From a phage, in the NCBI GenBank assembly GCA_014436445.1, contig GCA_014436445.1_4089.1: a stretch of 26,673 bases of DNA; one strand, written 5' to 3'. The stretch's first letter is position 1. Each line of letters begins with the position of its first letter. Position numbers and translations under genes: made by a program. Shown piece by piece: positions 3,335 through 24,218 of this stretch. The notes beneath the pieces are model-generated. The model saw only the letters and a program-made list of their open reading frames with translations. It did no database searches and was not told where the DNA came from.

Positions 3335-3526
3335 TTAAATTTTATTTCCGATATAGTCCGGCCTATTCTTTTCGGTCATACGCTTTGCTAATGTTTGCAT
3401 ATAGCTTATCGCGTTTAAGGTGTCTTCCTCCAGGGATGAATCAACATAATCAGGATCATTCTTCACCTTGCAATGATTATGATAGCGTAGTACTGCCAGT
3501 ACTTTTTTAACTTCTTCAACTGTCAT
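3335..3526 (-). CDS. hypothetical small protein (63 aa), overlaps the upstream stop by 4 nt
   Basis: Track ORF; start and stop overlap with 3523..3795 suggests translational coupling. Confidence 0.5.
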   Translation of the reverse strand: MTVEEVKKVLAVLRYHNHCKVKNDPDYVDSSLEEDTLNAISYMQTLAKRMTEKNRPDYIGNKI

Positions 3527-5238: not shown

Positions 5239-5457
5239 TTAGATAATATTATATTTCTTAAAATAAAATGCGTCCTGTGTTGGTTGATACTCGATACCGT
5301 TCCCGTTATTGACTTCAACTAATAAACCTTTGTCAATTAGTTTTTTAATAGTACGATACCCCTGTTGAAAATTGGTAAAATGTGAATCATTACGAAAGGT
5401 ATAACCGTGCTTAACTGCTTCATCAATAGTTTTCTTTTCGATTTTAGATAATTTCAT
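5239..5457 (-). CDS. hypothetical small protein (72 aa), possibly a winged-helix DNA-binding protein
   Basis: Track ORF trimmed to the ATG at 5457 (MKLSKIEKKTIDEAVKHGYTF...); the TIKKLIDKGLLVEV segment resembles a winged-helix recognition helix and wing. Weak. Confidence 0.45.
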   Translation of the reverse strand: MKLSKIEKKTIDEAVKHGYTFRNDSHFTNFQQGYRTIKKLIDKGLLVEVNNGNGIEYQPTQDAFYFKKYNII

Positions 5458-5513
5458 TTTGTTTCTCTCTCTGTGTTGGTATAGATACATAATACTAAAA
5501 CAATTGAGTACTG

Positions 5514-5768
5514 TCAACGTGATATTAGTTTTATTTTTTTATTGTATTGTTGGTGTTCATATAGATTAATTTTTCCAGTACTCTCGATCACTATTCTATT
5601 GTTAGTGTCTACGTCGATTACACGTAGTTTCCCGTTGCTTAACTTCCTAGGCAATAGACTACCATTAATAAACTCATTAGCAAGCTGTACGGCCTTTGTG
5701 ATGATTCTCTGTGGGGCTTTATAGTGTACCCGTAATACATTATCGTTTGATAGTTGAACCTTAATCAT
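5514..5768 (-). CDS. hypothetical protein (84 aa)
   Basis: Track ORF; preceded by the hairpin at 5783-5807. Confidence 0.5.
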   Translation of the reverse strand: MIKVQLSNDNVLRVHYKAPQRIITKAVQLANEFINGSLLPRKLSNGKLRVIDVDTNNRIVIESTGKINLYEHQQYNKKIKLISR

Positions 5769-10007: not shown

Positions 10008-10187
10008 TTAGCGGTAATCGTCGTATGCTTTATTAACCTGGCGAATGTAACTTTCAAAGGCTTCGTCTACCGTTTCATACTCCCGAACATAATCACCATA
10101 GGAAACTACATACATCCCTTTTTGATCTTCAAACGTCATGATGATAGAATCCAGGCCGATGATTTCAGTTTTTGCGATAATAGCCAT
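10008..10187 (-). CDS. hypothetical small protein (59 aa)
   Basis: Track ORF 10008..10259 trimmed to the ATG at 10187 (AAGGAA Shine-Dalgarno); the extension would cover the promoter (TTGACA, 17 nt, CATAAT) and leader. Confidence 0.5.
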   Translation of the reverse strand: MAIIAKTEIIGLDSIIMTFEDQKGMYVVSYGDYVREYETVDEAFESYIRQVNKAYDDYR

Positions 10188-10278
10188 TTTAGTATTCCTT
10201 AAATTAATATGCGTTGTCTTGATAAAAGTTATTATGCCAGTACTATCAAACGTTGTCAATAGTACTGTGATAATATTT

Positions 10279-10491: not shown

Positions 10492-10586
10492 TTTGTTTTC
10501 TCTCTCTGTTAGTGGGGAGAACTATTCTCCCCTTGATGTAAACTATTATACAGTACTAAAAACTATTGTCAAACTATTTTTTAATA

Positions 10587-13047: not shown

Positions 13048-13138
13048 TTTTTGTTTCCTCTTAGTTGTCTTGATAAAATCTATTATGCCAGTACTATCAA
13101 ACTATGTCAATAGTACTGTGATAATAATTTTACTTACT
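13042..13138. repeat. ~96-bp direct repeat, copy A (copy B at 13337-13432)
   Basis: Near-identical promoter, leader and first-codon cassette (CCATTTTTTGTTTCCTCTTAGTTGTCTTGATAAAATCTATTATGCCAGTACTATCAA...) flanking gene 13130..13342; the copies differ only at about 2-3 positions. Confidence 0.7.
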
Positions 13139-13342: not shown

Positions 13343-13423
13343 TTTTGTTTCCTCTTAGTTGTCTTGATAAAATCTATTATGCCAGTACTATCAATCTATG
13401 TCAATAGTACTGTGATAATAATT

Positions 13424-13950: not shown

Positions 13951-14103
13951 TTAAAGTTTATCAATGATTGATGCCGTTTCATTGATAGTCTTGCCGTGTT
14001 TTGCACACGCAATAACTGCTTTAAATTCCTTTGATGACCAATCTTTCTTGCTGCATACTGACATTACTTGTAACGTGAAACAATCCAGTTCATAAGTATT
14101 CAT
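13951..14103 (-). CDS. hypothetical small protein (50 aa)
   Basis: Not in the track. GAGGA Shine-Dalgarno; TTGCAC/TATAAT promoter at 14140-14190. Confidence 0.4.
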   Translation of the reverse strand: MNTYELDCFTLQVMSVCSKKDWSSKEFKAVIACAKHGKTINETASIIDKL

Positions 14104-14330
14104 CTTTATATCCTCAGTTAGTTAAGGTGTTTCGCCTTGATGTAAAACATTATACGCTAATCTCTGAATCGTGCAAGTACTTTTTATTACTTTTTGCAAA
14201 ATACTTTAAACGCTCTAAATCGCATTCTAACGACCTTAACTCCACCAGCTAGGGCGATGCATCAGATAATCAGTTTAATGCGTTAGAATCGATTCTATGA
14301 GGTGCTGACGGCATGGAATACTATAGACAC

Positions 14331-14355
14331 AAAAAAGCCCACTGTATAAGTGGGC
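14331..14355 (-). terminator. intrinsic terminator
   Basis: GCCCACTTATACAGTGGGC stem followed by TTTTTT on the minus strand, directly after the stop of 14378..14860. Confidence 0.6.
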
Positions 14356-14377
14356 TAGTGATTCAGTACTTTAATTG

Positions 14378-14860
14378 TTATGCTTCAACTTTGCGGTGAG
14401 CTTCGATCCATTCCTCGCGAGTCATACCGCTTTCTTTGATTGCATCCAGTACTACCGCAATGCAGTTACCGCGTACAGGAATCAAATGTTCTTCCCCGTT
14501 ATCAAGGACAACCGTAACACGTTCTTGAATCCATTTTTTAGGCTTAGATTCCGGCTTATCTTCACCGTACTTAACCGCCAGGGCTTTATGTGCCATTTCA
14601 ATCACCACTTCCAGATCTAAACCAGACACCGCCGCCTGAATACTTTCTATTGTTGCTTGCAGTTCTGCTTCACGGGCTTTTTTCTGTTCTTCCAGTTCTG
14701 CTACCTTTTTGGCTTGTAGTTCTTTCGCTTCACTGTAAGCAATGTTAAAATTGTTGCGTACTGCTTTCATGGTATCATTATCCAGGTCAGCCAGCAATTC
14801 AGCAGCAATAACAGTATCGTTAGAAATCAGTGCTTTCAGAAATGATTTTACATTAGCCAT
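14378..14860 (-). CDS. hypothetical protein with a central coiled-coil-like segment (160 aa)
   Basis: Track ORF trimmed to the ATG at 14860 (GAGGA Shine-Dalgarno); the central KELQAKKVAELEEQKKAREAELQATIESIQ segment is heptad-like; promoter TTGACA, 16 nt, TAGAAT at about 14965-15000. Confidence 0.6.
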   Translation of the reverse strand: MANVKSFLKALISNDTVIAAELLADLDNDTMKAVRNNFNIAYSEAKELQAKKVAELEEQKKAREAELQATIESIQAAVSGLDLEVVIEMAHKALAVKYGEDKPESKPKKWIQERVTVVLDNGEEHLIPVRGNCIAVVLDAIKESGMTREEWIEAHRKVEA

Positions 14861-15055
14861 TTTATAAATCCTCAATTAAAGTTTAAGTTAGTGTATCAAA
14901 GTTTTATTGACGTGTCCAGTTTTTCATTCGACTTACTGGCGGTCTACTTAGTGTTCCCCGTCTTGATGTAATACATTCTACGCTTTTCCCTGGTAATGTC
15001 AACTACTTTTTTAAAACTATTTTCAAAGTATACCAGTACTACAATACTACAAAAA

Positions 15056-15082
15056 CAAAAAAGCCCACTGCTTATAGTGGGC
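15056..15082 (-). terminator. intrinsic terminator
   Basis: GCCCACTATAAGCAGTGGGC stem followed by a T-run on the minus strand after the stop of 15104..15403. Confidence 0.6.
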
Positions 15083-15103
15083 TAGTGATTCAGTACTGAT
15101 GTA

Positions 15104-15403
15104 TTATAGACAGTTAATTACACCTGTGTGCGTTACTTTCTCCGTATCCATTACAGTGACAGAACCACGTTTAGCACTGGCATCATAATAAATTGTTGTG
15201 CTACCTTTATCATCTTCTTCATGGAACGGGCCATTTTTAAATGCTTCCGGCTGCAATTCCAGATCCTTTAAAACAATCTCGCCAGTACTTTCATCTGTCA
15301 TTGCTACGGTGCACTGAATGAATTTATCACCAGGTACATCTAACGACGCATTAACAGCGAAAGAGGAAACAGATAAAGCCAGGGCGATGATTGCAACTTT
15401 CAT
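15104..15403 (-). CDS. small secreted or periplasmic protein with a Sec signal peptide (99 aa)
   Basis: N-terminus MKVAIIALALSVSSFAVNA-S has a basic n-region, hydrophobic core and AxA-like cleavage site; two Cys in the mature part; leader hairpin and promoter at 15420-15480. Confidence 0.6.
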   Translation of the reverse strand: MKVAIIALALSVSSFAVNASLDVPGDKFIQCTVAMTDESTGEIVLKDLELQPEAFKNGPFHEEDDKGSTTIYYDASAKRGSVTVMDTEKVTHTGVINCL

Positions 15404-15516
15404 TTGATTATCCTTAGTTACCAGGGGAAACCGTTTCCCCGTGCGATGTAAAACATTATACGCGTTTAAAAACTATTATCAAGTACTTTAATATAAAAGT
15501 ATTTGAAAAAAAAGTC

Positions 15517-15545
15517 TTGACAACTGCATCCAGTACTGGCATAAT
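15517..15545 (+). promoter_or_regulatory. plus-strand sigma70-type promoter (TTGACA, 17 nt, CATAAT)
   Basis: Consensus -35, 17-nt spacer and CATAAT -10; no plus-strand ORF follows, only the CCCACAGGGTGCA leader motif and a hairpin. Confidence 0.5.
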
Positions 15546-15551
15546 ACTTAC

Positions 15552-15650
15552 ATAAAGACGAGATAGTCACTAACCCACAGGGTGCATAGATCCGTCTATT
15601 AAATGATTCAGTACAAAAAATATAAAGGGGATCAATTGATCCCCCTGGTT
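15552..15650 (+). ncRNA. candidate ~100-nt small RNA
   Basis: Predicted transcript from the 15517-15545 promoter, containing GAGATAGTCACTAACCCACAGGGTGCA and ending at the palindromic hairpin GGGGATCAATTGATCCCCC (15627-15645), which also terminates minus gene 15652..15873. Confidence 0.3.
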
Positions 15651-15651
15651 A

Positions 15652-15873
15652 TTACTTAGTAAGATATAAACAGAAGTCACCTTTATTTGCTACGCCGCCA
15701 GTGTAACGCGATGAATAGTTAGAAACGTCCTGGACTTCTGCTATTACCAGTGTATCATCATTCAATTCGTCGCAGAAGCAAACGGCTGGATCTTTTACGC
15801 CGATATTGTCGGCATGTTCCCGCATAGATTTAACCAGTGCTTCAAGTTGGGAAAGAGTAGTGATATTAGCCAT
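15652..15873 (-). CDS. hypothetical protein (73 aa)
   Basis: Track ORF 15652..15903 trimmed to the ATG at 15873 (GAGGAAAA Shine-Dalgarno) downstream of the leader hairpin at 15885-15906. Confidence 0.55.
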   Translation of the reverse strand: MANITTLSQLEALVKSMREHADNIGVKDPAVCFCDELNDDTLVIAEVQDVSNYSSRYTGGVANKGDFCLYLTK

Positions 15874-15958
15874 TTTATTTTCCTCATTACCAGGGAGAAC
15901 CATTTCCCCCTTGATGTAAACTATTATACAGTACTAAAAACTAATTGCAAGTACTTTT

Positions 15959-16162
15959 TTAATTTAATTGCTTTAAAACATACTCAAAGACACCACGCAC
16001 ATCATTGATCATCGCCTGGCGGTTAGCAGGTAACGCATCAGGATCGCCACTATCCCAGGCATTGATAAAACTCCCCAAATCATGATAGATTTTATTCTGT
16101 AAGCCGATCAACTGCAATTCTTTTTCTTCAAGCTCTTTGATACGTTCAATTAAATCACTCAT
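15959..16162 (-). CDS. hypothetical small protein (67 aa)
   Basis: Track ORF 15959..16198 trimmed to the ATG at 16162 (AAGGA Shine-Dalgarno), 17 nt after the stop of 16180..16461. Confidence 0.5.
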   Translation of the reverse strand: MSDLIERIKELEEKELQLIGLQNKIYHDLGSFINAWDSGDPDALPANRQAMINDVRGVFEYVLKQLN

Positions 16163-16179
16163 TATATAATCCTTAGTAC

Positions 16180-16461
16180 TTAATTGTAAGATCCGCAACG
16201 GTCGCAGTAGTGCCCCTCGTCATCGTCAACGAATTGACCAACGAAATTATCTACTTTCGCTTTCAGGTTATTATAATCGTTTTCTACTTCCTTTAAACGC
16301 TTCTGGTAGTATTCCAGTGCTTTAAGATATGCCGCATCAGTAGTTTTCTCCTGCATAGCTAAATTCATGCCACGCGTTTCATCGTACAGCCAAAAACCAT
16401 CGGTGCACTCACTTATAGACAATGACTTGCTTAACACATTGTACTTTATTACTTTACTCAT
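16180..16461 (-). CDS. hypothetical protein (93 aa)
   Basis: Track ORF; GAGGA Shine-Dalgarno; leader hairpin GCGGGAACTATTCCCGC and TTGCAA/TATAAT promoter at 16480-16545. Confidence 0.6.
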   Translation of the reverse strand: MSKVIKYNVLSKSLSISECTDGFWLYDETRGMNLAMQEKTTDAAYLKALEYYQKRLKEVENDYNNLKAKVDNFVGQFVDDDEGHYCDRCGSYN

Positions 16462-16546
16462 TAGATAATCCTCAGTAAAGGCGGGAACTATTCCCGCTCT
16501 CGATATAAAGTATTATACGTTAATCTAATTACTTTGCAAGTACTTT

Positions 16547-16783
16547 TTAGTGCTTTTTATAAAACATCTCAGCGGTAATATCTTTACCCGTTGGCTGTAC
16601 TTTATCCAGGATCTTTTGGTGTGCACTACGCCCGAAAGAATAAGAACCGTAAACCGTTAGCCAGTAGTCGCCATTTTGGTTTACATGTACCGCACAATAG
16701 GGAACGCCCCGCGAATCGTCACCAATGAAGTGTGATACTGTACCCGTTACGTTTGGCGTTGTAGTTTTGATTTGTTCGATCAT
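16547..16783 (-). CDS. hypothetical protein (78 aa)
   Basis: Track ORF 16547..16816 trimmed to the ATG at 16783 (AGGAG Shine-Dalgarno); the hairpin GGCGGGAACCATTCCCCGCC at 16806-16825 precedes it without a separate promoter. Confidence 0.55.
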   Translation of the reverse strand: MIEQIKTTTPNVTGTVSHFIGDDSRGVPYCAVHVNQNGDYWLTVYGSYSFGRSAHQKILDKVQPTGKDITAEMFYKKH

Positions 16784-16826
16784 TTCTCTTACTCCTGGGA
16801 TATAGGCGGGAACCATTCCCCGCCAG

Positions 16827-16844
16827 TGATTCAGTACTGAATTA
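16827..16844. promoter_or_regulatory. near-perfect copy of the 18-bp palindrome TGATTCAGTACTGAATCA (candidate operator)
   Basis: TGATTCAGTACTGAATTA here; full or half copies also at 14359, 15087, 15604, 18961, 19257, 20103, 20138 and 20381. Confidence 0.4.
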
Positions 16845-17453
16845 ATATGCGATAGATTCTACTACACCATCGATAACATTAAATTGATATTCGTTACCCT
16901 CAATCAGTCCTACAATGTTTTCAGTAGTAAACTGGTCTTCATAAGCATTTTCTAAATCACGGTACAACTTACGAGATAATTCACGGATCGTCTCAGTCAG
17001 TAAGTTTTCCAGATCCTCAGCCAATGCCGCCTGTTTTACAGTTAAATCAGTGTAGCGAGTATCAACGCAACCGCCTACCGTGTTTTCGTGTGCATAACGC
17101 GATTGGGAACGTTCTACACTCATTTCTAAATCATCTACGTTCAACAGGTGACGGATAGTGCGATACTTAGTTAACGCCTTAACCTTGCGTAAAAACTTCT
17201 CAGCGTCAACGTGGTCAGTACTGATTGATGCACCGTCACCTTGCGACCAAAAACCACTGTATTGCAATTCAGCTTCATCTATGCCGTATTCTGGCAGTAC
17301 TGTTTCTTTATAGTATTCCAGTACTGACTCAGCAAAGAAATTATCCTCACTTGCACGTTCCCGATCCCGAACCAGTTCGATAGCCGCCGTTTGTTGTTCT
17401 GCGTTCAGTTCAGAAAAAGCCATAACAAAAGTAGTAGTAGTGATAGTTTTCAT
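16842..17453 (-). CDS. hypothetical protein (203 aa)
   Basis: Track ORF; GAGGGT Shine-Dalgarno; tandem promoter module at 17455-17650 duplicated from 7140-7330. Confidence 0.65.
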   Translation of the reverse strand: MKTITTTTFVMAFSELNAEQQTAAIELVRDRERASEDNFFAESVLEYYKETVLPEYGIDEAELQYSGFWSQGDGASISTDHVDAEKFLRKVKALTKYRTIRHLLNVDDLEMSVERSQSRYAHENTVGGCVDTRYTDLTVKQAALAEDLENLLTETIRELSRKLYRDLENAYEDQFTTENIVGLIEGNEYQFNVIDGVVESIAY

Positions 17454-17521
17454 TTTGTAACCCTCATTCAGTGGTTGATGTAAGTATTATACTTGTTTAC
17501 TTTCTATTGTCAAACTATTTT

Positions 17522-17597
17522 ATCAGGGGAGTTTTTCGTAAGTCTTACTCCTGGACTACTTAACAGGGAGTTACTTATTTCGTTCCCCGTCCTGATG
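17522..17597 (-). ncRNA. candidate structured RNA or leader element, copy 2
   Basis: Differs from the 7206-7281 copy at only 4 positions; same flanking promoters. Confidence 0.35.
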
Positions 17598-17752
17598 TAA
17601 AACATTATACGCCTTTAAACATAGTTGGCAAGTACTTTTTGAAAATAGTTTTTAGTACTTTCATATAGATACACTCCCGCACCCTATGGGCTATCGCCTA
17701 GTGTCCGGCTTGTAAGTATTATCTCACTAAGCCGGATAACTGTCAAGTACTT

Positions 17753-18019
17753 TTATTCAAGTACTGCAATCTTTTTAGTACTGTACACAGTAACGCGGTT
17801 GCCCTTGCGGTCGTGCTTTATTTCTACCACGCGACGCGATACACTATCAGGACGCTTTAAAGCAGATAGCCAGTACTGAATTGATCGGGCTGTACTTTGC
17901 TTTACTACGGCCCAACGTTTACCACGTTCAGATTGTACGCCCATATCTTTAAACGTCGCCCCGTCCTGGCGTGCGGCAATCCGAGCAAGTTCACGCGTTG
18001 CAAAGTATATAATATTCAT
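17753..18019 (-). CDS. hypothetical protein (88 aa), paralog of 5831..6226
   Basis: Track ORF 17753..18073 trimmed to the ATG at 18019 (MNIIYFATRELARIAAR...); promoter region paralogous to the one upstream of 5831..6226. Confidence 0.55.
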   Translation of the reverse strand: MNIIYFATRELARIAARQDGATFKDMGVQSERGKRWAVVKQSTARSIQYWLSALKRPDSVSRRVVEIKHDRKGNRVTVYSTKKIAVLE

Positions 18020-18101
18020 GCTGTTACCCCTATCGTTGTTGTATAAAAGAAATCTATTATAAAGTACTATCACCGTGCAATAGTACTTTTAATCTATTCT
18101 C

Positions 18102-18341
18102 TTACATTCCAACCATCGCCGCACGGATCGCAGTAGTGCTATACTTAAAGCCGTCCGGTGTTTTATCTTGTCCAGTCTGTTCTAAAAATAGCATCATATG
18201 ACGGGCCGCATCATTACGATTAGTGTTAGCGGCAATAAAGTCCTGGGCCAACCGGTATAATGATTCGTCGTTATTAATCCAAAGGCTTACATTCCATTGA
18301 GTTTTGTTTTTGTGTCCTAAGAACATTTTTGATTTAGCCAT
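18102..18341 (-). CDS. hypothetical protein (79 aa)
   Basis: Track ORF; AAGAGGA Shine-Dalgarno; leader hairpin GTGGGGAACTATTCCCCAC and TTGCAA/TATAAT promoter at 18362-18430. Confidence 0.6.
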   Translation of the reverse strand: MAKSKMFLGHKNKTQWNVSLWINNDESLYRLAQDFIAANTNRNDAARHMMLFLEQTGQDKTPDGFKYSTTAIRAAMVGM

Positions 18342-18435
18342 TTTTAAATCCTCTTAATTATAGTGGGGAACTATTCCCCACCTGATGTAAAGTATTATAC
18401 GCTTTTAAACTTAGTTTGCAAGTACTTTATTAAAC

Positions 18436-18798
18436 TTATTCGTAAATCTTGCCACTGTCAGCCCATACCAGGAAACGAGGCATATTATCCCATGCATCTT
18501 GTTTTAAGTTTAAGCCGTGCAATACTTCTGTACTTTCCATTCCTGGTACTGGCTTGCTATACACTGCAAACATTTCGCCCATGTACTGATAAGCCATCGT
18601 TAAATCAGTCTGGATCATCTTATGGATCATTGCATCCAGCATTGCAGTAGCGGCGTACTGTTCACGCTTAAGCGGCAACATTGCAATCAATTCCCGATAA
18701 GCTGCAATGTGAATCCGTACAGTCTCAGCGGGAAGATCTTTCATCTCTTCACGGAAAGAAACCAGGTTAAGCATGATAGTATTGATTTTAGTAGCCAT
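18436..18798 (-). CDS. hypothetical protein (120 aa)
   Basis: Track ORF; leader hairpin CGGGAGCGTCTCCCCCG and TTGCAA promoter at 18826-18890. Confidence 0.6.
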   Translation of the reverse strand: MATKINTIMLNLVSFREEMKDLPAETVRIHIAAYRELIAMLPLKREQYAATAMLDAMIHKMIQTDLTMAYQYMGEMFAVYSKPVPGMESTEVLHGLNLKQDAWDNMPRFLVWADSGKIYE

Positions 18799-19116
18799 CG
18801 TTTTAATCTCTTTTAAAAGTGAGTCGGGAGCGTCTCCCCCGTCTCGATGTAAAACATTCTACACCTTTCCCAATACTTTGCAAGTACTTTCTACAAATAC
18901 TTTTAAAATAGTTTTCTTTCTATATAGGAGTACTGGAACAATCCAGGGAGAACAATCTTTCAGTACTGAATCATTAAGATACCCGTAAAACGGCCTCAAT
19001 CGCATTCTAACGCATTAATACACCTAAGCTATACATTTGCACCGCCACCAGCTAACCAGGGCTTTACGGGCCGTTTAAACGCGTTAAATTATTTTCAATT
19101 ATTTTGTTTTTAGCTA

Positions 19117-19144
19117 TTGACTCAGCACCGAAAAAGCGTATAAT
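19117..19144 (+). promoter_or_regulatory. plus-strand promoter (TTGACT, 16 nt, TATAAT)
   Basis: Consensus elements within the non-coding block; no ORF downstream. Confidence 0.45.
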
Positions 19145-19332
19145 TACTACATAGACGCGAGAAAGCGGATACCCCTGGGGGTGCGGAATTACGCCCAAAA
19201 TTCAGTAAATTTAAAAAGGATACACTCCCGCACCTTAGCAGGTCATAGCACTTTCTCAGTACTGAATCATAGTACCATAGTACGCCCCAGGATGGCAAGC
19301 AAATTAATTAAAACTTTTTGCGTTTAGGGTAT

Positions 19333-19360
19333 TGCTTTATTTTTTCAGTACTGCTATAAT
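19333..19360 (+). promoter_or_regulatory. plus-strand promoter (TTGCTT, 16 nt, TATAAT)
   Basis: Followed by GAGAAAGACTCTAGCCCACCGGGTGCATAA, i.e. the same leader motif as at 15552. Confidence 0.45.
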
Positions 19361-19457
19361 ATTTTCATCAAGTCGAGAAAGACTCTAGCCCACCGGGTGC
19401 ATAATTGTATCTAAAATTCAGTACTAGATTATTTTTTAAAATTATTCATCCAGGCGG

Positions 19458-19486
19458 TTGACATTGCCCCCAGTTTATTAGATAAT
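19458..19486 (+). promoter_or_regulatory. plus-strand promoter (TTGACA, 17 nt, GATAAT) reading toward the iteron array
   Basis: Consensus elements; downstream lie a GGGGAAACCATCCCC hairpin and the iteron-like array. Confidence 0.45.
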
Positions 19487-19580
19487 GATTCCAGATTCAG
19501 AAAAATCTAACTCCAGATACTGCGGGGAAACCATCCCCACGCGGTAGGGGAACTATTGGAAAAACAAAATAAAATTTTGA

Positions 19581-19712
19581 TTTAGCCGTCTATACTTCCA
19601 GACGTGTAACCATCTAGCCGTTTAGCCGTCCAAACGTCTAGCAGTACAGCCATCTAGAAATCTAGCCATCCAGCCGCCTAGAGGGATAGCCATCTTTACT
19701 TCCAGCCATCTG
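19581..19712. repeat. iteron-like array of about 8 YAGCCRTC octamers with interspersed GTCTAG/CATCTAG
   Basis: TTTAGCCGTC occurs exactly twice (19581, 19621); TAGCCGTT, CAGCCATC, TAGCCATC (twice), CAGCCGCC and CAGCCATC follow within about 130 bp of non-coding DNA. Confidence 0.55.
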
Positions 19713-19881
19713 GAGGTCTAGACATCTCTACGTCTAAATTTAACCTAGGGTTACTACGCCCAAAATCCGTCAGTACTATACCATAGATCTATCTTTAAGA
19801 AGGGAGTATTCAGTACTCCCACAATAGCCCTCACTGTTACTGTAGGAGGATGAAGACTATCATGTAGTACTGAATACTGTT

Positions 19882-19911
19882 AGTGGATAATCCACCAGCT
19901 TGTGCTGGTGG
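19882..19911. promoter_or_regulatory. DnaA-box-like 9-mer inside palindrome TGGATAATCCA, followed by hairpin CCACCAGCTTGTGCTGGTGG
   Basis: AGTGGATAA matches the DnaA box (TGTGGATAA, the complement of TTATCCACA) at 8 of 9 positions; an 8-bp-stem hairpin lies immediately 3'. Confidence 0.3.
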
Positions 19912-20398
19912 CATAATGCGTTAGATTAATATCAGTACTGCTACCATTCTGTTAATAACAGTACTGTTCATATTACGAAAAAAGAGGTTATAAAAAGATG
20001 TACCACCCATAGGAGGAACTATCCTTTCAGTACTGTCTCACGACAGGAGGTAGAGTGAATGAATTGTTTGCGGCAACTCATCTCTCTATGTAGAACATTA
20101 TACAGTACTGAATCATAATGTCAATAGCTTTCTTTCATTATTCAGTACTGAAATCGTATAATCTGTATCGCTACAAAACTCATTATATCCCACAAATCCT
20201 ATATGTCCCAACGTAAATTTCAACTTTCGAAGATCCAACTTTTATTTCATAGGTACTCCAAAATTTTTAGGATCGAGATTTAGGATGGAGTACTAACCAA
20301 CTTTTTGCTGGAGCCTCAAGGGGTAATTGAATTTTACCCCGAAGGGTAAAGGGGTAATTGAAATTAAGGTGAAAGTAATAATTCAGTACTAATCATTG

Positions 20399-20628
20399 CG
20401 TGATTACTTTTGATTACATTTGATGTAATTTGCAAAATGGAAAAGGAGCTTGGAAACTACAAAGTACGGCAGACTTCCTCTGCCTACTTAGTGGCATATC
20501 AGTACTGCTACGTTCTTGATTAAACGTGAACATTCCTGTACTCTAGTACTCAATACTAATCACTACCGTGCGTATGAATGATTACATAAATGTTTATATA
20601 TGATTACTTATGACTACCTATGATTACG
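20399..20628. repeat. two clusters of helically phased (A)TGATTAC repeats (20399-20428 and 20578-20628)
   Basis: GATTAC at 20401 and 20411 plus GATGTAAT at 20421; ATGATTAC at 20578, 20601 and 20621 plus ATGACTAC at 20611, with 10-bp spacing in the second cluster. Confidence 0.5.
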
Positions 20629-20743
20629 GGGTTTAGCCTGGGGAGAATCCTAGTGATCGCATTTGTCCAGGCTGAATTTTAACATATGCAACATATGTTA
20701 AAGCCTGTATAATGCTTCCACTACGGAGCTTCCCCTAGCTATA

Positions 20744-20944
20744 TTACTTCCTATATATAATCATTAAGATATAGTAGTACTGATTGTACTGTACATTCTC
20801 TTTAATATTATAAGGGTCTATAGCAATCTCGGTACATCTGTTAAATGCATATCTATTAAATGCCAGTGGAATTATAGATCTAATCCATACTTGTTCATTT
20901 TCTTTTAGTTTACTTATATAGAATTCTTTATGTTCTTTATTCAT
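20744..20944 (-). CDS. small-protein paralog array, member 15 (66 aa)
   Basis: Track ORF; N-terminus MNKEHKEFY, central Cys motif (NRCTEIAI), C-terminus YYILMIIYRK. Confidence 0.6.
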   Translation of the reverse strand: MNKEHKEFYISKLKENEQVWIRSIIPLAFNRYAFNRCTEIAIDPYNIKENVQYNQYYYILMIIYRK

Positions 20945-20949
20945 ATTAG

Positions 20950-21135
20950 TTAGTGTCTGTATATAAGTAATAGTAAGAATACGTACTGCACATCTTCATC
21001 TTTAGTATTGAGTACTGTACGTATTGCGTCATTAAACAAGAATATAGTACTTGGGTCATGAGAATTTAAAGGGGTTCTGGGTACGGCATGTTTGTAGTTC
21101 CCTTTAACAAATTGTGTGTAGTATTCTCTATGCAT
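20950..21135 (-). CDS. small-protein paralog array, member 14 (61 aa)
   Basis: Track ORF; MHREYYTQF...LLLLIYRH. Confidence 0.6.
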   Translation of the reverse strand: MHREYYTQFVKGNYKHAVPRTPLNSHDPSTIFLFNDAIRTVLNTKDEDVQYVFLLLLIYRH

Positions 21136-21136
21136 A

Positions 21137-21322
21137 TTAGTACCTATATATTAGGGCGAGAATGTAGTACAATTCATATGGAATGTAATTTGGGGTGATC
21201 GCACACTGTGTATGGTAAATGAATTGTTCGGTATTTTTCTTATCCTTGATATCTATTGGGATTTGTGGTATAAGCATTTGGGAGTTTAGATCGAGATGGC
21301 TTAAGTAGAATTCTTTATGCAT
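21137..21322 (-). CDS. small-protein paralog array, member 13 (61 aa)
   Basis: Track ORF; MHKEFYLSHL...QCAI...YYILALIYRY. Confidence 0.6.
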   Translation of the reverse strand: MHKEFYLSHLDLNSQMLIPQIPIDIKDKKNTEQFIYHTQCAITPNYIPYELYYILALIYRY

Positions 21323-21331
21323 ATTGTTCTC

Positions 21332-21520
21332 TTAGAATACGAAAGCTAGGTACAGGGTATGATACAGTACTCGATGATAGCTGTCAAAATCTAGTATACA
21401 TGCTTTAGTGCACATAGTAAAGTACACTTTATCATTTTGTGCATTGATACCGCGAGGTTTATCTAATAGATTAGTTCTGAGGTACATTGGGAAATATTTT
21501 GTGTAGTATTCTTTATGCAT
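21332..21520 (-). CDS. small-protein paralog array, member 12 (62 aa)
   Basis: Track ORF 21332..21565 trimmed to the family-conserved start MHKEYYTKYF at 21520; ends ...YHTLYLAFVF. Confidence 0.6.
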   Translation of the reverse strand: MHKEYYTKYFPMYLRTNLLDKPRGINAQNDKVYFTMCTKACILDFDSYHRVLYHTLYLAFVF

Positions 21521-21521
21521 G

Positions 21522-21704
21522 TTAGTACCTGAATATAAGTAGGATAGTGTTATATAGCTGGTCATAACTACTACTATTTTCTATACTTCGTTCTATGCAG
21601 TTATTGAATCCCAGTACTGCCAAATCGTTATCCATAGGGACTTTATATCTGGCGTAGTGTTCAAAAATGCTGGGGAGAAATTGTGTGTAGTATTCTTTGT
21701 GCAT
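21522..21704 (-). CDS. small-protein paralog array, member 11 (60 aa)
   Basis: Track ORF; MHKEYYTQFLP...NNCIERSI...ILLIFRY. Confidence 0.6.
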   Translation of the reverse strand: MHKEYYTQFLPSIFEHYARYKVPMDNDLAVLGFNNCIERSIENSSSYDQLYNTILLIFRY

Positions 21705-21705
21705 A

Positions 21706-21891
21706 TTAGTACCTATATATTAGTAAAAGGATGTGATACAGTACTCGATTATAGTCGTCAATATATATCGAGGATTTAGTGCACTGAATGAAGTAGTCTT
21801 TTTCGTAGTTTTTTTCTATACCCAATGGTTCTGTTGGTACAAGGTGTTGGAGATACATTGGGAGTTTCTCTATGTAGTATTCTTTATACAT
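21706..21891 (-). CDS. small-protein paralog array, member 10 (61 aa)
   Basis: Track ORF; MYKEYYIEKLPMYLQ...QCTKSSI...YHILLLIYRY. Confidence 0.6.
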   Translation of the reverse strand: MYKEYYIEKLPMYLQHLVPTEPLGIEKNYEKDYFIQCTKSSIYIDDYNRVLYHILLLIYRY

Positions 21892-21900
21892 ATATTATCC

Positions 21901-22101
21901 TTAGTACTGGAACGCAAGGTACAGGGTGTGGTAAAGTTGTACTTGATAATTGTTTTCATTAGCTTCTTCATTAAGTACTTGTTCAGTACATGTACGGAAG
22001 TAATCAGCTTCATATATACAGTCAATACCGCGAGGTTCATCTTCTAATAGATTTCCTTGTAGAAACTTTGGTAGTTCTTTTATGTAGAATTCTTTATACA
22101 T
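21901..22101 (-). CDS. small-protein paralog array, member 9 (66 aa)
   Basis: Track ORF 21901..22164 trimmed to the family-conserved start MYKEFYIKELPKFLQ at 22101; ...RTCTEQVL...YHTLYLAFQY. Confidence 0.6.
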   Translation of the reverse strand: MYKEFYIKELPKFLQGNLLEDEPRGIDCIYEADYFRTCTEQVLNEEANENNYQVQLYHTLYLAFQY

Positions 22102-22765
22102 AGTTTGTAATATACGTAATGAGGTGATGCATTTTCTTATCAGTACTGATAATTTCCTGTACATGTTTTGTCAGATTGTACGCGTTTTTATAGAGTACTG
22201 GATTATCGATTACAGTACTGTACATGAATAGTTCTTCTTCCTGTAGTTCTTTGTGTTCTAGTTCTTTGAGGAATTGTAGTACTGTATCAGTTTCTTCTGT
22301 ACGTTGTGCTTGCCAGAAGTGCATATTCTCGTGTACTTTTTCTGCATCAGTAGAGTATATGCCACCCATTTGGAATTGTGCTGTATTGACATCGTGGGAG
22401 GTGTTACAATTCCCGAAGAAGTATGTATTCCCGAAGTATAGCATTAAAGTGCACGGGGTATTATCCAACTGCATATTGATGATGAAGGATGCGTTCTTTA
22501 GTACCTTTGTGCTCGTATTAGTACTCAATACTTTTAAATCAGTATTATAGATATTCATATAATGAACAGCTATATTATTTTTCTTCATGTACAATTCAAG
22601 GTTCTTTGATACGTTAACTCCATTTGTACTGGATTTTTCCTTTTTATTTCGTTTCTTTAGTACATTCGGGTGATACGTATATGCAGATGTAACTGATTCT
22701 GCCTGAATACTATTGAGGTACTTAAAGTGCTTAAGGTATTGTTTGCTGTGTGCATTAAGTTTCAT
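22094..22765 (-). CDS. 223-aa protein with an HExxH motif, embedded in the paralog array
   Basis: Track ORF; AAGGAAA Shine-Dalgarno; contains AEKVHENMHFWQA (HExxH, the zincin metallopeptidase signature); does not share the array-family termini. Confidence 0.55.
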   Translation of the reverse strand: MKLNAHSKQYLKHFKYLNSIQAESVTSAYTYHPNVLKKRNKKEKSSTNGVNVSKNLELYMKKNNIAVHYMNIYNTDLKVLSTNTSTKVLKNASFIINMQLDNTPCTLMLYFGNTYFFGNCNTSHDVNTAQFQMGGIYSTDAEKVHENMHFWQAQRTEETDTVLQFLKELEHKELQEEELFMYSTVIDNPVLYKNAYNLTKHVQEIISTDKKMHHLITYITNYV

Positions 22766-22775
22766 TTGGTTTCCT

Positions 22776-22955
22776 TTATATAGATGCCAGGGCGAGGATT
22801 TCCCTGTAGGGATTATCTTGTGTTAGTACAGCATAAATGCAGTTATTGAGATTAATATTTTTAGTACTTTTTGTTCCTAGTTTGTAGTACTTCACGAAGG
22901 TGTCGTACATGAAACGGTCTTTTATGGTTATACGTTCTCTATAGAATTGTTGCAT
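22776..22955 (-). CDS. small-protein paralog array, member 7 (59 aa; MQQFYRERITIKDRFMYDTFVKYYKLGTKSTKNINLNNCIYAVLTQDNPYREILALASI)
   Basis: Not in the track (59 aa). AAGGAA Shine-Dalgarno; central NNCIYAVL and C-terminal ILALASI fit the family. Confidence 0.5.
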   Translation of the reverse strand: MQQFYRERITIKDRFMYDTFVKYYKLGTKSTKNINLNNCIYAVLTQDNPYREILALASI

Positions 22956-22963
22956 AGTATTCC

Positions 22964-23146
22964 TTAAATAGCGATTAGTTTCATTACTTCTCTGTATGTG
23001 TACTTTTCGTTTTGTGCATCTCTTGTGACGACATATAGGAAGGTGTGTTTATCTTTTTTGTTCCCGCAATTGTAGAAAATATTGAACTTATTGAAGTTGA
23101 ATCTTTCGGCGTGTTGTAGTTTAGTTAAATAGAATTCTATATTCAT
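22964..23146 (-). CDS. small-protein paralog array, member 6 (60 aa)
   Basis: Track ORF; MNIEFYLTKL...YNCGN...MKLIAI. Confidence 0.55.
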   Translation of the reverse strand: MNIEFYLTKLQHAERFNFNKFNIFYNCGNKKDKHTFLYVVTRDAQNEKYTYREVMKLIAI

Positions 23147-23154
23147 TTTCTTCC

Positions 23155-23340
23155 TTACATTTCAATAAGTTTAAGTACTGCTCGGTACGTGTACTTAGTT
23201 GTTAGTGCTTCTTTAATAGAAATACAGAAGTAATGTTGTTTGTCTCTTATACTGCCGCGTTTGTAGTACCACACATGGGAGTTGTGACTGTACTTGTCTC
23301 TGTCGGATAGTTGTTGGTAGTAGTAGCTTATATGATTCAT
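23155..23340 (-). CDS. small-protein paralog array, member 5 (61 aa)
   Basis: Track ORF; MNHISYYYQQL...FCISIKEAL...LKLIEM. Confidence 0.55.
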   Translation of the reverse strand: MNHISYYYQQLSDRDKYSHNSHVWYYKRGSIRDKQHYFCISIKEALTTKYTYRAVLKLIEM

Positions 23341-23392
23341 TATAATGTAATTAGCCTTACTATATTAAAGTACTCGGTCCCTGGTGTACCTT

Positions 23393-23587
23393 TTAGAACT
23401 TAAAGATGAGGTTCAGGATAGAGCGGTACTTAGTTGCAGGGAACGTATGTTCTATTGCATAACGTGTCACCATCCTGAAATCGTAATTATAATACAGATT
23501 ATCCTTTCTCATAGGTGGTGCTAAAGAGAATGATAGCTGTTCTTGTTTGGGTAGTTTACTACAATAGAAATCTTTATGATTATTCAT
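23393..23587 (-). CDS. small-protein paralog array, member 4 (64 aa)
   Basis: Track ORF; MNNHKDFYCSKLPKQEQ...ILNLIFKF. Confidence 0.55.
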   Translation of the reverse strand: MNNHKDFYCSKLPKQEQLSFSLAPPMRKDNLYYNYDFRMVTRYAIEHTFPATKYRSILNLIFKF

Positions 23588-23789
23588 AGAAATATATTAG
23601 TCCTATTAAACCAGAGTACATAATATTTTTGTTATTACATTCGATTGCTTCTAGAGTACTACGTATACAATTATTAAAGCAATCTCTGGCGTGTGGTGTA
23701 TCTATACTTAAAGGTGATACACTCCTTAGAAACAATTGTTCTTCGTTGCTAAGGTATTTGGTGTAGAATTCTTTATGTTCAGTATTCAT
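23580..23789 (-). CDS. small-protein paralog array, member 3 (69 aa)
   Basis: Track ORF; MNTEHKEFYTKYLSNEEQ...NNCIRSTL...LIGLIYFYE; 8-nt overlap with member 4. Confidence 0.6.
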   Translation of the reverse strand: MNTEHKEFYTKYLSNEEQLFLRSVSPLSIDTPHARDCFNNCIRSTLEAIECNNKNIMYSGLIGLIYFYE

Positions 23790-23790
23790 A

Positions 23791-23994
23791 TTAGTACTCG
23801 ATTAAAAGGGCAAGGATATAATAGTATTGCATACTTTCTGCCCCTTGTAAAGCATTTCTTATGATATTATTCCTGTACGAGTTCAGGAGTTTAGGACAAC
23901 GTTTGTAGTGTATAATAGTATTTTGTGTATACAGTAGGCTTTCTCGTAGACCTTTTGTTGGTAGTGCATCGATGTAGTACTGTTCGATATTCAT
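23791..23994 (-). CDS. small-protein paralog array, member 2 (67 aa)
   Basis: Track ORF; MNIEQYYIDALP...YYILALLIEY. Confidence 0.6.
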   Translation of the reverse strand: MNIEQYYIDALPTKGLRESLLYTQNTIIHYKRCPKLLNSYRNNIIRNALQGAESMQYYYILALLIEY

Positions 23995-24218
23995 ATAGAT
24001 AGCAGTACTAAGATTTTTGATAATTGTTTATTGCTATCCCCGCAGATGTTGCTGTGTAAAATACTCACAATGAGGGTATCAATTGCATTGTTCATCATAA
24101 GGGTGCATCCTGGACTATTATAATTTTTTAGCTCAATTAGCCACGAACTATCCGAGAGAAACTCCCCGTACTCTAGTTCATTTAGAGTATTGAGGTAGTA
24201 CTTAAGAGTATTTGTCAT
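23991..24218 (-). CDS. small-protein paralog array, member 1 (75 aa), first gene after the array promoter
   Basis: Track ORF; AAGGAG Shine-Dalgarno; MTNTLKYYLNTL...PGCTLMMNNAI...ILVLLSI. Confidence 0.55.
   Translation of the reverse strand: MTNTLKYYLNTLNELEYGEFLSDSSWLIELKNYNSPGCTLMMNNAIDTLIVSILHSNICGDSNKQLSKILVLLSI

Follow-up and report, generated by a model that had tools for sequence, protein, structure and literature searches.

The question raised by this locus is whether the palindrome found at positions 16827-16844 is itself a recognition site or one instance of a shorter word spread over a phage chromosome, and what kind of reader such a word would have. An earlier note on the DNA analysed here (26,673 bp, hereafter the window) had described a family of 18-bp palindromes together with a heavy over-representation of their core hexamer AGTACT, and had taken this to suggest either a recognition sequence for a dimeric DNA-binding protein or selection related to a restriction or modification specificity.

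Positions 14000-21000 of the window match Escherichia phage 121Q, an Asteriusvirus (a Rak2-like jumbo myovirus of 348.5 kb), with 94% identity over 99% of the length, and the window corresponds to the region of ~130-156 kb of 121Q. About 70 tiny hypothetical genes lie here on the minus strand, every one of them with a sigma-70-type promoter to itself, and an RCC1-like gene lies on the plus strand; by analogy with the description of phage CBB, this is probably the early region. The gene at 5514-5768 (minus strand) encodes an 84-aa protein in which a ParE-like toxin domain was recognized (PF24732, E = 3e-10), and is followed, with a 4-nt overlap, by a 92-aa gene (5239-5517, minus strand), so the two may form a toxin-antitoxin pair among the early genes. 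A tandem array of ~14 paralogous genes of 56-77 aa (about 61 aa) occupies positions 20744-24218 (minus strand), its products having MHKEYY at the start and LLIYR-like motifs at the end; it has a lower G+C content (34%) and a GC skew opposite to that of the remaining window, and is still rich in AGTACT (22 sites).

Next to this array lies a gene-free block of 1.9 kb (18800-20743) with 18 copies of AGTACT, many in the form of TCAGTACTGAA. Inside it, ~18 units of a degenerate 8-bp tandem repeat (TCTAGCCR) at 19581-19724 are followed by an A+T-rich stretch; the arrangement resembles iterons, which would suit an origin or some other array for protein binding. The window further contains ten copies of the Chi sequence GCTGGTGG (well under one expected from base composition), nine of them in one orientation (minus strand, at 1931, 3731, 5135, 7356, 8275, 9736, 14242, 19045 and 19892) and one in the other (plus strand, at 19904). 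In the complete 121Q genome there are 29 Chi copies versus ~2.3 expected, and 9 of 18 same-orientation copies fall within 136-154 kb; Chi clustered in this way may protect early-entering DNA against RecBCD arriving from one end.

Excess and exactness of the hexamer

AGTACT occurs 153 times in the window, dispersed from end to end (1-26673) at one copy per 174 bp, versus 9.1 ± 2.75 copies in dinucleotide-preserving shuffles (the shuffle maximum being 15), a 17-fold excess. The expectations of Markov models of order 0, 1, 2 and 3 are 9.0, 9.3, 25.3 and 62.2 copies, respectively, and at orders 1-3 the word has the top z-score among all 4096 hexamers (66.7, 35.9 and 16.3). The excess concerns both the non-coding DNA (7.5 kb; 78 copies versus 2.5 expected) and the coding DNA (19.2 kb; 75 copies versus 22.6 ± 4.0 in synonymous codon shuffles), where the sites fall in all three codon phases. 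The over-representation is thus confirmed as real and is larger than the earlier note had supposed; it persists after dinucleotide and higher-order modelling, which rules out an artefact of composition as its cause.

The 18-bp palindrome fared differently. Its consensus TGATTCAGTACTGAATCA has no exact copy in the window, and five copies have three or fewer mismatches (shuffles gave none). The best of them, TGATTCAGTACTGAATTA at 16827-16844, has one mismatch, overlaps the stop codon of a 203-aa gene (16842-17453, minus strand) and adjoins a G+C-rich hairpin. The copies at 18956-18973 (two mismatches) and 19252-19269 (three mismatches) lie in the gene-free block. That at 15086-15103 (three mismatches) has its AGTACT 9 nt upstream, in the minus-strand sense, of a terminator stem (15083-15062), and in that at 20098-20115 (two mismatches) the AGTACT (20104-20109) serves as the -19 box for a minus-strand promoter of perfect TTGACA-16-TATAAT sequence (20124-20097). 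Four further places claimed for the family (14359, 15604, 20138 and 20381) hold one exact or near-exact half each, with AGTACA at 15604. The supposed location mostly after terminators applies to 15604; the hexamers at 14365 and 15092 are each transcribed shortly before a terminator stem. The 18-mer is, in fact, a small cassette-like subfamily of AGTACT sites.

To delimit the unit, the flanks of all 903 AGTACT sites of 121Q were analysed. The base at position -1 is C in 46% and G in 8% of the sites, mirrored on the 3' side, with a purine in 32%. Beyond ±1, the flank information does not exceed 0.03 bit per position in coding DNA and 0.13 bit in non-coding DNA, and the dyad symmetry of the flanks (2.43 matches of 8) is about that expected by chance (2.19). 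Single-mismatch variants of the hexamer occur at 0.5-2.0 times expectation, as compared to 7.6 for the exact word. The C(-1)/G(+1) flanks are symmetric whatever the direction of transcription, with no orientation bias. Symmetric flanks, a preference confined to C and G at ±1 and sharp exactness together establish that the functional unit is an exact palindrome of 6-8 bp, (C)AGTACT(G), with the preferred form CAGTACTG, on double-stranded DNA. With the information confined to 6-8 bp, no exact copy, negligible flank information and a flank symmetry barely above chance, the 18-bp palindrome is rejected both as recognition unit and as functional unit.

Several other kinds of element could be set aside on the same data. 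An RNA-level motif is ruled out by the symmetric flanks and the lack of orientation bias, and the window gave no Rfam and no tRNA hits. A dispersed repeat element (REP- or MITE-like) was rejected because extended shared sequence is seen only in a handful of intergenic cassettes, while 741 coding sites share nothing beyond ±1. An oriented genome word of the Chi, KOPS or DNA uptake sequence (DUS) type was rejected since the word is a palindrome and its flanks remain symmetric when oriented by transcription.

Spread over the genome and the clade

The whole 121Q record (NC_025447.1), assembled from eight stretches, contains the 903 copies of AGTACT where ~118 are expected (7.65-fold). Every 10-kb bin has at least 11 of them (3.4 expected), with a peak of 65 per 10 kb at 130-150 kb, the region of the window. 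The density is 2.4 per kb in coding and 4.5 per kb in non-coding DNA. Within ORFs there are 743 sites, where synonymous shuffling within genes gives 215 ± 13 and shuffling of the codon order 125 ± 11, and the three codon phases, with 361, 148 and 234 copies versus 113, 38 and 65, are all enriched.

These numbers bear directly on the explanation of the excess as a passive by-product of duplicated promoter and terminator cassettes combined with Ser-Thr, Val-Leu or Tyr dipeptide and codon preferences. It draws some plausibility from several promoters being near-identical copies (see below), from the cassette-like character of the 18-mer subfamily and from AGT and ACT being the commonest Ser and Thr codons. 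On the other hand, the coding excess of 3.5-fold over synonymous and 6-fold over codon-order shuffles, in all phases, rejects codon or dipeptide bias; the coding sites share no sequence beyond ±1 and are better conserved than hexamers of the same composition, and the excess extends to every 10-kb bin of 121Q and to three genera. As a sufficient explanation the by-product is therefore refuted by the shuffles, the conservation and the spread, and we attach hardly any probability to it. The same genome-wide and clade-wide spread disposes of the view of the motif as a feature of promoters and terminators alone.

The commonest Ser codon, AGT, occurs 2419 times in 121Q, 361 of these as in-frame AGT-ACT, and the record contains a tRNA-Ser with anticodon ACT (75464-75555); the phage tRNA set may be adapted to the word.

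Comparison with other phages delimits the phenomenon. AGTACT is enriched 6.7-fold in RaK2, 6.9-fold in CBB and 14.9-fold in GAP32 (early region). It is not enriched in the more distant relatives PA5oct (0.07-fold) and Atu_ph07 (0.22-fold), both of which are depleted, nor in rV5 (0.66-fold) or E. coli K-12 (0.87-fold, in one 50-kb sample). The excess, present in RaK2, CBB and GAP32 and absent from PA5oct, Atu_ph07, rV5 and E. coli, is therefore a property of a phage clade, and belongs neither to the host nor to E. coli phages generally.

Among the phages compared, all those with the excess infect Enterobacterales, and the hosts of the relatives that lack it are Pseudomonas or Agrobacterium. This host range is what one would expect if a host protein conserved in Enterobacterales were reading AGTACT, for example the nucleoid-occlusion factor SlmA, which could be titrated or activated to block cell division. 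The 12-bp SlmA site GTGAGTACTCAC indeed has AGTACT at its centre; it strongly requires G1 and T2 (also A4 and G5) and prefers a purine at position 3 (PMC3020112). However, G is the rarest base right before the phage hexamer, positions -2 and -3 are at background, and 121Q has no match to GTRAGYRCTYAC and a single match to the consensus at up to one mismatch. SlmA-binding sites are thus largely refuted on the flank requirements. Moreover, the excess is lacking in rV5, although this phage also grows on E. coli and has early genes in common with the window, and we regard a host reader of any kind as very improbable.

The kinship with rV5 deserves mention in its own right. Five early proteins of the window (16842-17453, 18436-18798, 3335-3526, 10008-10259 and 16547-16816, all on the minus strand) are 54-73% identical to homologues in this unrelated phage (gp179, gp180 and others), and early genes have therefore been exchanged between phage families. 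Several early genes are thus common to rV5 and the window, yet rV5 has neither the AGTACT excess nor the promoter boxes described below.

Within 121Q, two AGTACT-free islands of 4.1 and 7.6 kb (155502-159569 and 161800-169384) are situated just past the left end of the window. The Poisson expectation is ~0.02 gaps longer than 4 kb. Both islands are occupied by arrays of small paralogous genes that overlap one another, and they may have been acquired or expanded recently.

Conservation of individual sites was assessed at two distances. Between the window and 121Q (95.8% identity overall), 142 of 149 aligned AGTACT sites (95%) are intact, as compared to 83-84% of control hexamers, whether all or flanking ones (p = 1.8e-5), and the per-base identity inside the sites is 98.5%. 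In codon alignments of orthologues, 40% of the 121Q sites are AGTACT at the equivalent position of RaK2 versus 15.9% of hexamers of the same composition (p = 1.7e-5), and for CBB the proportion is 33% versus 15.2% (p = 7e-4). There is also turnover, the majority of sites not being common to different genera. This pattern supports purifying selection acting on the sites; biased gene conversion or repair toward AGTACT would give the same positional conservation, and is inseparable from it here. The same argument from conservation beyond control words has been used for HIP1, the highly iterated palindrome of cyanobacteria, where gene conversion is likewise inseparable from selection (PMC5861425).

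Boxes in the early promoters

The earlier note had placed the hexamer in nearly every promoter spacer. Of 44 sigma-70-like minus-strand sites in the window, 31 carry AGTACT starting between -45 and -14, 19 of them with the box starting at -19/-20; the spacer claim is overstated. Of the others, eight start at -39/-40 and four at -42/-43, and since many of the boxed promoters are duplicated cassettes these counts are not independent observations. The boxes thus occupy fixed offsets. Those at -19/-20 abut the -10 element, and those at -39 to -43 overlap or abut the -35 element; in dual-box promoters the two flank the -35 element at a distance of 20-24 bp from each other.

Four promoters, all on the minus strand, illustrate the arrangements. 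In a single-box promoter (10545-10572), TTGACA (10567-10572) is followed by atagttttt, AGTACT (10552-10557), a single g and TATAAT (10545-10550), so that the box spans -19 to -14. In an upstream-box promoter (16512-16544), AGTACT (16539-16544), preceded by aaa and starting at -39, overlaps TTGCAA (16534-16539) by one base, and a 16-nt spacer leads to TATAAT (16512-16517). A dual-box promoter (15923-15955) combines both, with AGTACT (15950-15955) joined to TTGCAA (15945-15950), then ttagttttt, a second AGTACT (15930-15935), g and TATAAT (15923-15928), the boxes being 20 bp apart. In a dual-box promoter of the -42/-20 type (13082-13117), the boxes at 13112 and 13090 are 22 bp apart and flank TTGACA; near-identical copies of this promoter have their boxes at 13406/13384 and 10261/10239.

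The early region of GAP32, a phage of a different genus and host, has equal offsets (-19 in seven promoters and -39 to -41 in 17). No such promoter boxes were seen on the opposite strand of this GAP32 region, in a non-early region of 121Q or in rV5. A search of 2.9 million viral contigs with the dual-box promoter pattern gave matches only on jumbo contigs of 348-378 kb and on two shorter contigs of unclear affiliation.

Two conventional interpretations of the boxes were considered and rejected. The -19 box does not act as an extended -10 element, since its TG is displaced by one base from the canonical TGn position and a TG is missing from the boxes of GAP32. Neighbouring sites do not compose a LexA box, which would need an 18-bp spacing, the observed excess being at 20-24 bp with no CTG-N10-CAG pattern.

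The window also contains a separate, AGTACT-free promoter family, aaaaaagggaTTGACTccggtcagtccctttgcTATTAT, with -10 elements at 2021, 4280, 7421 and 11117 on the minus strand. An imperfect hairpin (GGGATTGAC/GTCAGTCCC) extends across its -35 element.

The promoter boxes are superimposed on a background of another character. Outside the early region, the density of AGTACT is flat along genes (2.0-2.8 per kb per decile) with no peak at gene starts. In the early region, the mid-gene density is similar, at 2.5-3 per kb, but it peaks 30-80 bp ahead of start codons and within the final third of the gene before. Short-range spacing in 121Q, where there is about one site per 385 bp, is random except for an excess at 18-23 bp due to promoter pairs, and periodic or cooperative spacing is accordingly rejected outside these pairs. 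Overall, the sites form two layers, a uniform background of ~2 sites per kb and fixed boxes in early sigma-70 promoters.

Possible readers and comparison with known systems

For a symmetric, strand-independent and sharply defined word whose fixed positions touch the two core promoter elements, the best explanation is a clade-specific protein reading the duplex. We therefore give an even chance to the reading of AGTACT as a signature word under selection in the enterobacterial Rak2-like jumbo phages (Asteriusvirus, Alcyoneusvirus and Mimasvirus), recognized symmetrically on the duplex by such a protein and serving also as an early-promoter operator. A phage-encoded dimer, or dimer of dimers, would bind the sites; in early promoters, its competition with host RNA polymerase would set the timing of early transcription or end it. 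Through the dispersed sites, the phage chromosome would become the preferred substrate, allowing the reader to tell viral from host DNA for coating, compaction or protection. The site density is 2.6 per kb in the phage versus 0.22 per kb in the one 50-kb host sample (~12-fold). The original proposal of a dimeric protein thus gains from the symmetric flanks, the fixed promoter positions and the signs of purifying selection, with the amendment that the unit is 6-8 bp rather than 18 bp.

A search for the reader among 30 proteins from the window and from the neighbourhood of the phage sigma factor, out of ~600 genes, revealed no DNA-binding domain, including HTH and RHH (Pfam; 20 of the proteins also against PHROGs). 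Precomputed Pfam hits for a 20-kb stretch (~40 early genes) of a 350,334-bp contig (GCA_036253855.1), which encodes one of the window's proteins with identical sequence and is probably its source, likewise include no DNA-binding domain. Two features of the sites themselves weigh against the operator reading. The extended degenerate half-sites (~14-20 bp in total) expected of classical operators are absent, and an all-or-none specificity over 6-8 bp is more typical of enzymes of the restriction-modification type and of HIP1 than of degenerate 14-20 bp operators. The uniform intragenic spread, moreover, has no obvious regulatory logic.

The sharp 6-bp specificity keeps alive a HIP1-type origin, in which an orphan methyltransferase with AGTACT or a GTAC core as its target, together with short-patch mismatch repair, would create and maintain the palindrome, the sites possibly serving a methylation-dependent function. 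All-or-none recognition with almost no flank information is characteristic of restriction-modification targets and HIP1 alike. The most enriched one-off variants (~2-fold) are outer-position changes, TGTACT and GGTACT, and HIP1 variants have the same outer-position bias according to Elhai (PMC4390886). These phages do encode DNA methyltransferases, and RaK2 DNA is reportedly methylated (PMC3622015). However, only two methyltransferases, gp91 and gp417, are annotated in 121Q, and neither looks AGTACT-specific, which also speaks against the modification specificity put forward in the earlier note. The former is a C5 enzyme with a full-length alignment to the catalytic domains of Dnmt3 and is probably CpG-specific, judging from this match and the CpG methylation reported for RaK2 (PMC3622015); AGTACT contains no CpG, and gp91 was rejected as the AGTACT methyltransferase on account of its being a Dnmt3-like C5 enzyme. 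The latter is an N6A enzyme of the phage Dam type (PF05869). A small DNA methyltransferase, similar to one of Vibrio phage K139, is listed in the RefSeq record of rV5 too, a phage without the excess. As to repair, the deamination precursor AGTATT/AATACT is not depleted in 121Q (observed/expected 1.06), which excludes Vsr-type repair of deaminated 5-methylcytosine, and no Vsr-like nuclease is annotated in this phage. Taken together, we hold a HIP1-type origin to be unlikely.

AGTACT might, alternatively, be an entry point for an enzyme of phage DNA metabolism, such as a nickase or endonuclease whose cut at the site initiates recombination-dependent replication, or a primase that recognizes an unusually long sequence. 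Being palindromic, the word would work on both strands, and frequent sites could be selected across a 350-kb genome; the distribution is indeed uniform and independent of gene and strand, with about one site per 385 bp, and the specificity is enzyme-like. The gene complement of these phages includes T4-type functions for replication and recombination as well as many nucleases, and sequence-specific nicks at short motifs occur in phages T5 and tf. On the other hand, nothing indicates a particular enzyme, known primases read ~3 nt and are not known to cause a word excess, and an entry point does not predict the fixed early-promoter positions conserved in GAP32. We judge this possibility to be quite unlikely.

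A broader formulation, which we put forward only tentatively and as doubtful, is that AGTACT constitutes a "self" tag of enterobacterial Rak2-like jumbo phages written in the sequence and read by a dedicated phage protein or by an enzyme of the restriction-modification type, so that the phage would treat its own 350-kb chromosome differently (early shut-off, nuclease protection, compaction or replication). Such a tag would be comparable to the hydroxymethylcytosine of T4, with the difference that the T4 tag is a modified base and here it would be the sequence itself. If true, no HIP-like system would have been seen in a virus before, and its reader would be experimentally findable. The identity of the reader could show how early transcription is timed, or phage DNA distinguished from that of the host, in jumbo phages that have neither modified bases nor a phage nucleus. 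In practical terms, AGTACT density and the dual-box promoter provide a clean metagenome signature for the clade and its early promoters, and ScaI sites are expected at intervals of about 400 bp in the DNA of these phages, so that digestion, which should succeed on unmodified DNA, offers a quick test for modification.

No mention of AGTACT, ScaI or the palindrome was found in the literature on these phages, including that on RaK2, CBB, Sharanji and fEgEco12 and a comparative survey of jumbo phages. Among known systems, the hexamer is identical to the specificity of the ScaI and Eco255I restriction-modification systems, with which it also shares the enzyme-like, all-or-none recognition of a 6-bp palindrome. 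The difference is that phages normally lose the sites of host restriction enzymes, whereas AGTACT is enriched in 121Q; selection related to restriction, as the earlier note had it, would deplete the word, which is enriched 7-17-fold. An ordinary signature of restriction avoidance, the opposite of the behaviour of AGTACT, is the absence from 121Q of GGTACC and CGTACG (no copies versus 32 expected of each) and of many other G+C-rich 6-bp palindromes.

Chi, KOPS and DUS are likewise short words selected genome-wide at high density for a DNA-level function, but they are asymmetric and strand-biased, whereas AGTACT is palindromic with symmetric flanks. Phage repressor operators, including the many dispersed C1 operators of P1, are 14-20 bp long, degenerate, overlap -35 and -10 elements and are not enriched inside genes. 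The boxes resemble them in the fixed overlap with core promoters, in pairs about two helical turns apart and in bringing many promoters under one word; they differ in that no more than 6-8 bp carry information and that the word lies mostly inside genes. With the SlmA sites and the Noc sites (NBS), AGTACT has in common that palindromic, dimer-read sites are scattered over a chromosome, and with SlmA also the central hexamer. In contrast to the phage sites, which lack or avoid it, the 12-bp SlmA site has an essential GT(R) flank, and there are ~50 such sites per 4.6-Mb genome, none of them in a promoter, versus the 903 sites of 121Q in 0.35 Mb (PMC3020112).

Overall, the phenomenon most resembles HIP1 (GCGATCGC; Xu, Lawrence and Durand 2018, PMC5861425; Elhai 2015, PMC4390886). 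Each is a short exact palindrome whose hyper-abundance extends over coding as well as non-coding DNA and is unaccounted for by codon usage, and each has sites conserved beyond control words. There are several differences. AGTACT has a different, AT-rich sequence and a lower excess (7-17-fold versus 15-300-fold), and it belongs to a virus clade, whereas HIP1 belongs to a cellular phylum. HIPs co-occur with a cognate methyltransferase, and none was found for AGTACT among the annotated 121Q enzymes. Finally, AGTACT has a layer of fixed promoter positions, whereas no role in gene expression has been found for HIP1. The function of HIP1 was still unresolved in the 2018 analysis (PMC5861425), and a culturable, compact clade of E. 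coli phages, with ~900 sites in 350 kb, a sharp boundary with relatives lacking or avoiding the word and fixed promoter positions, would be a much easier experimental system.
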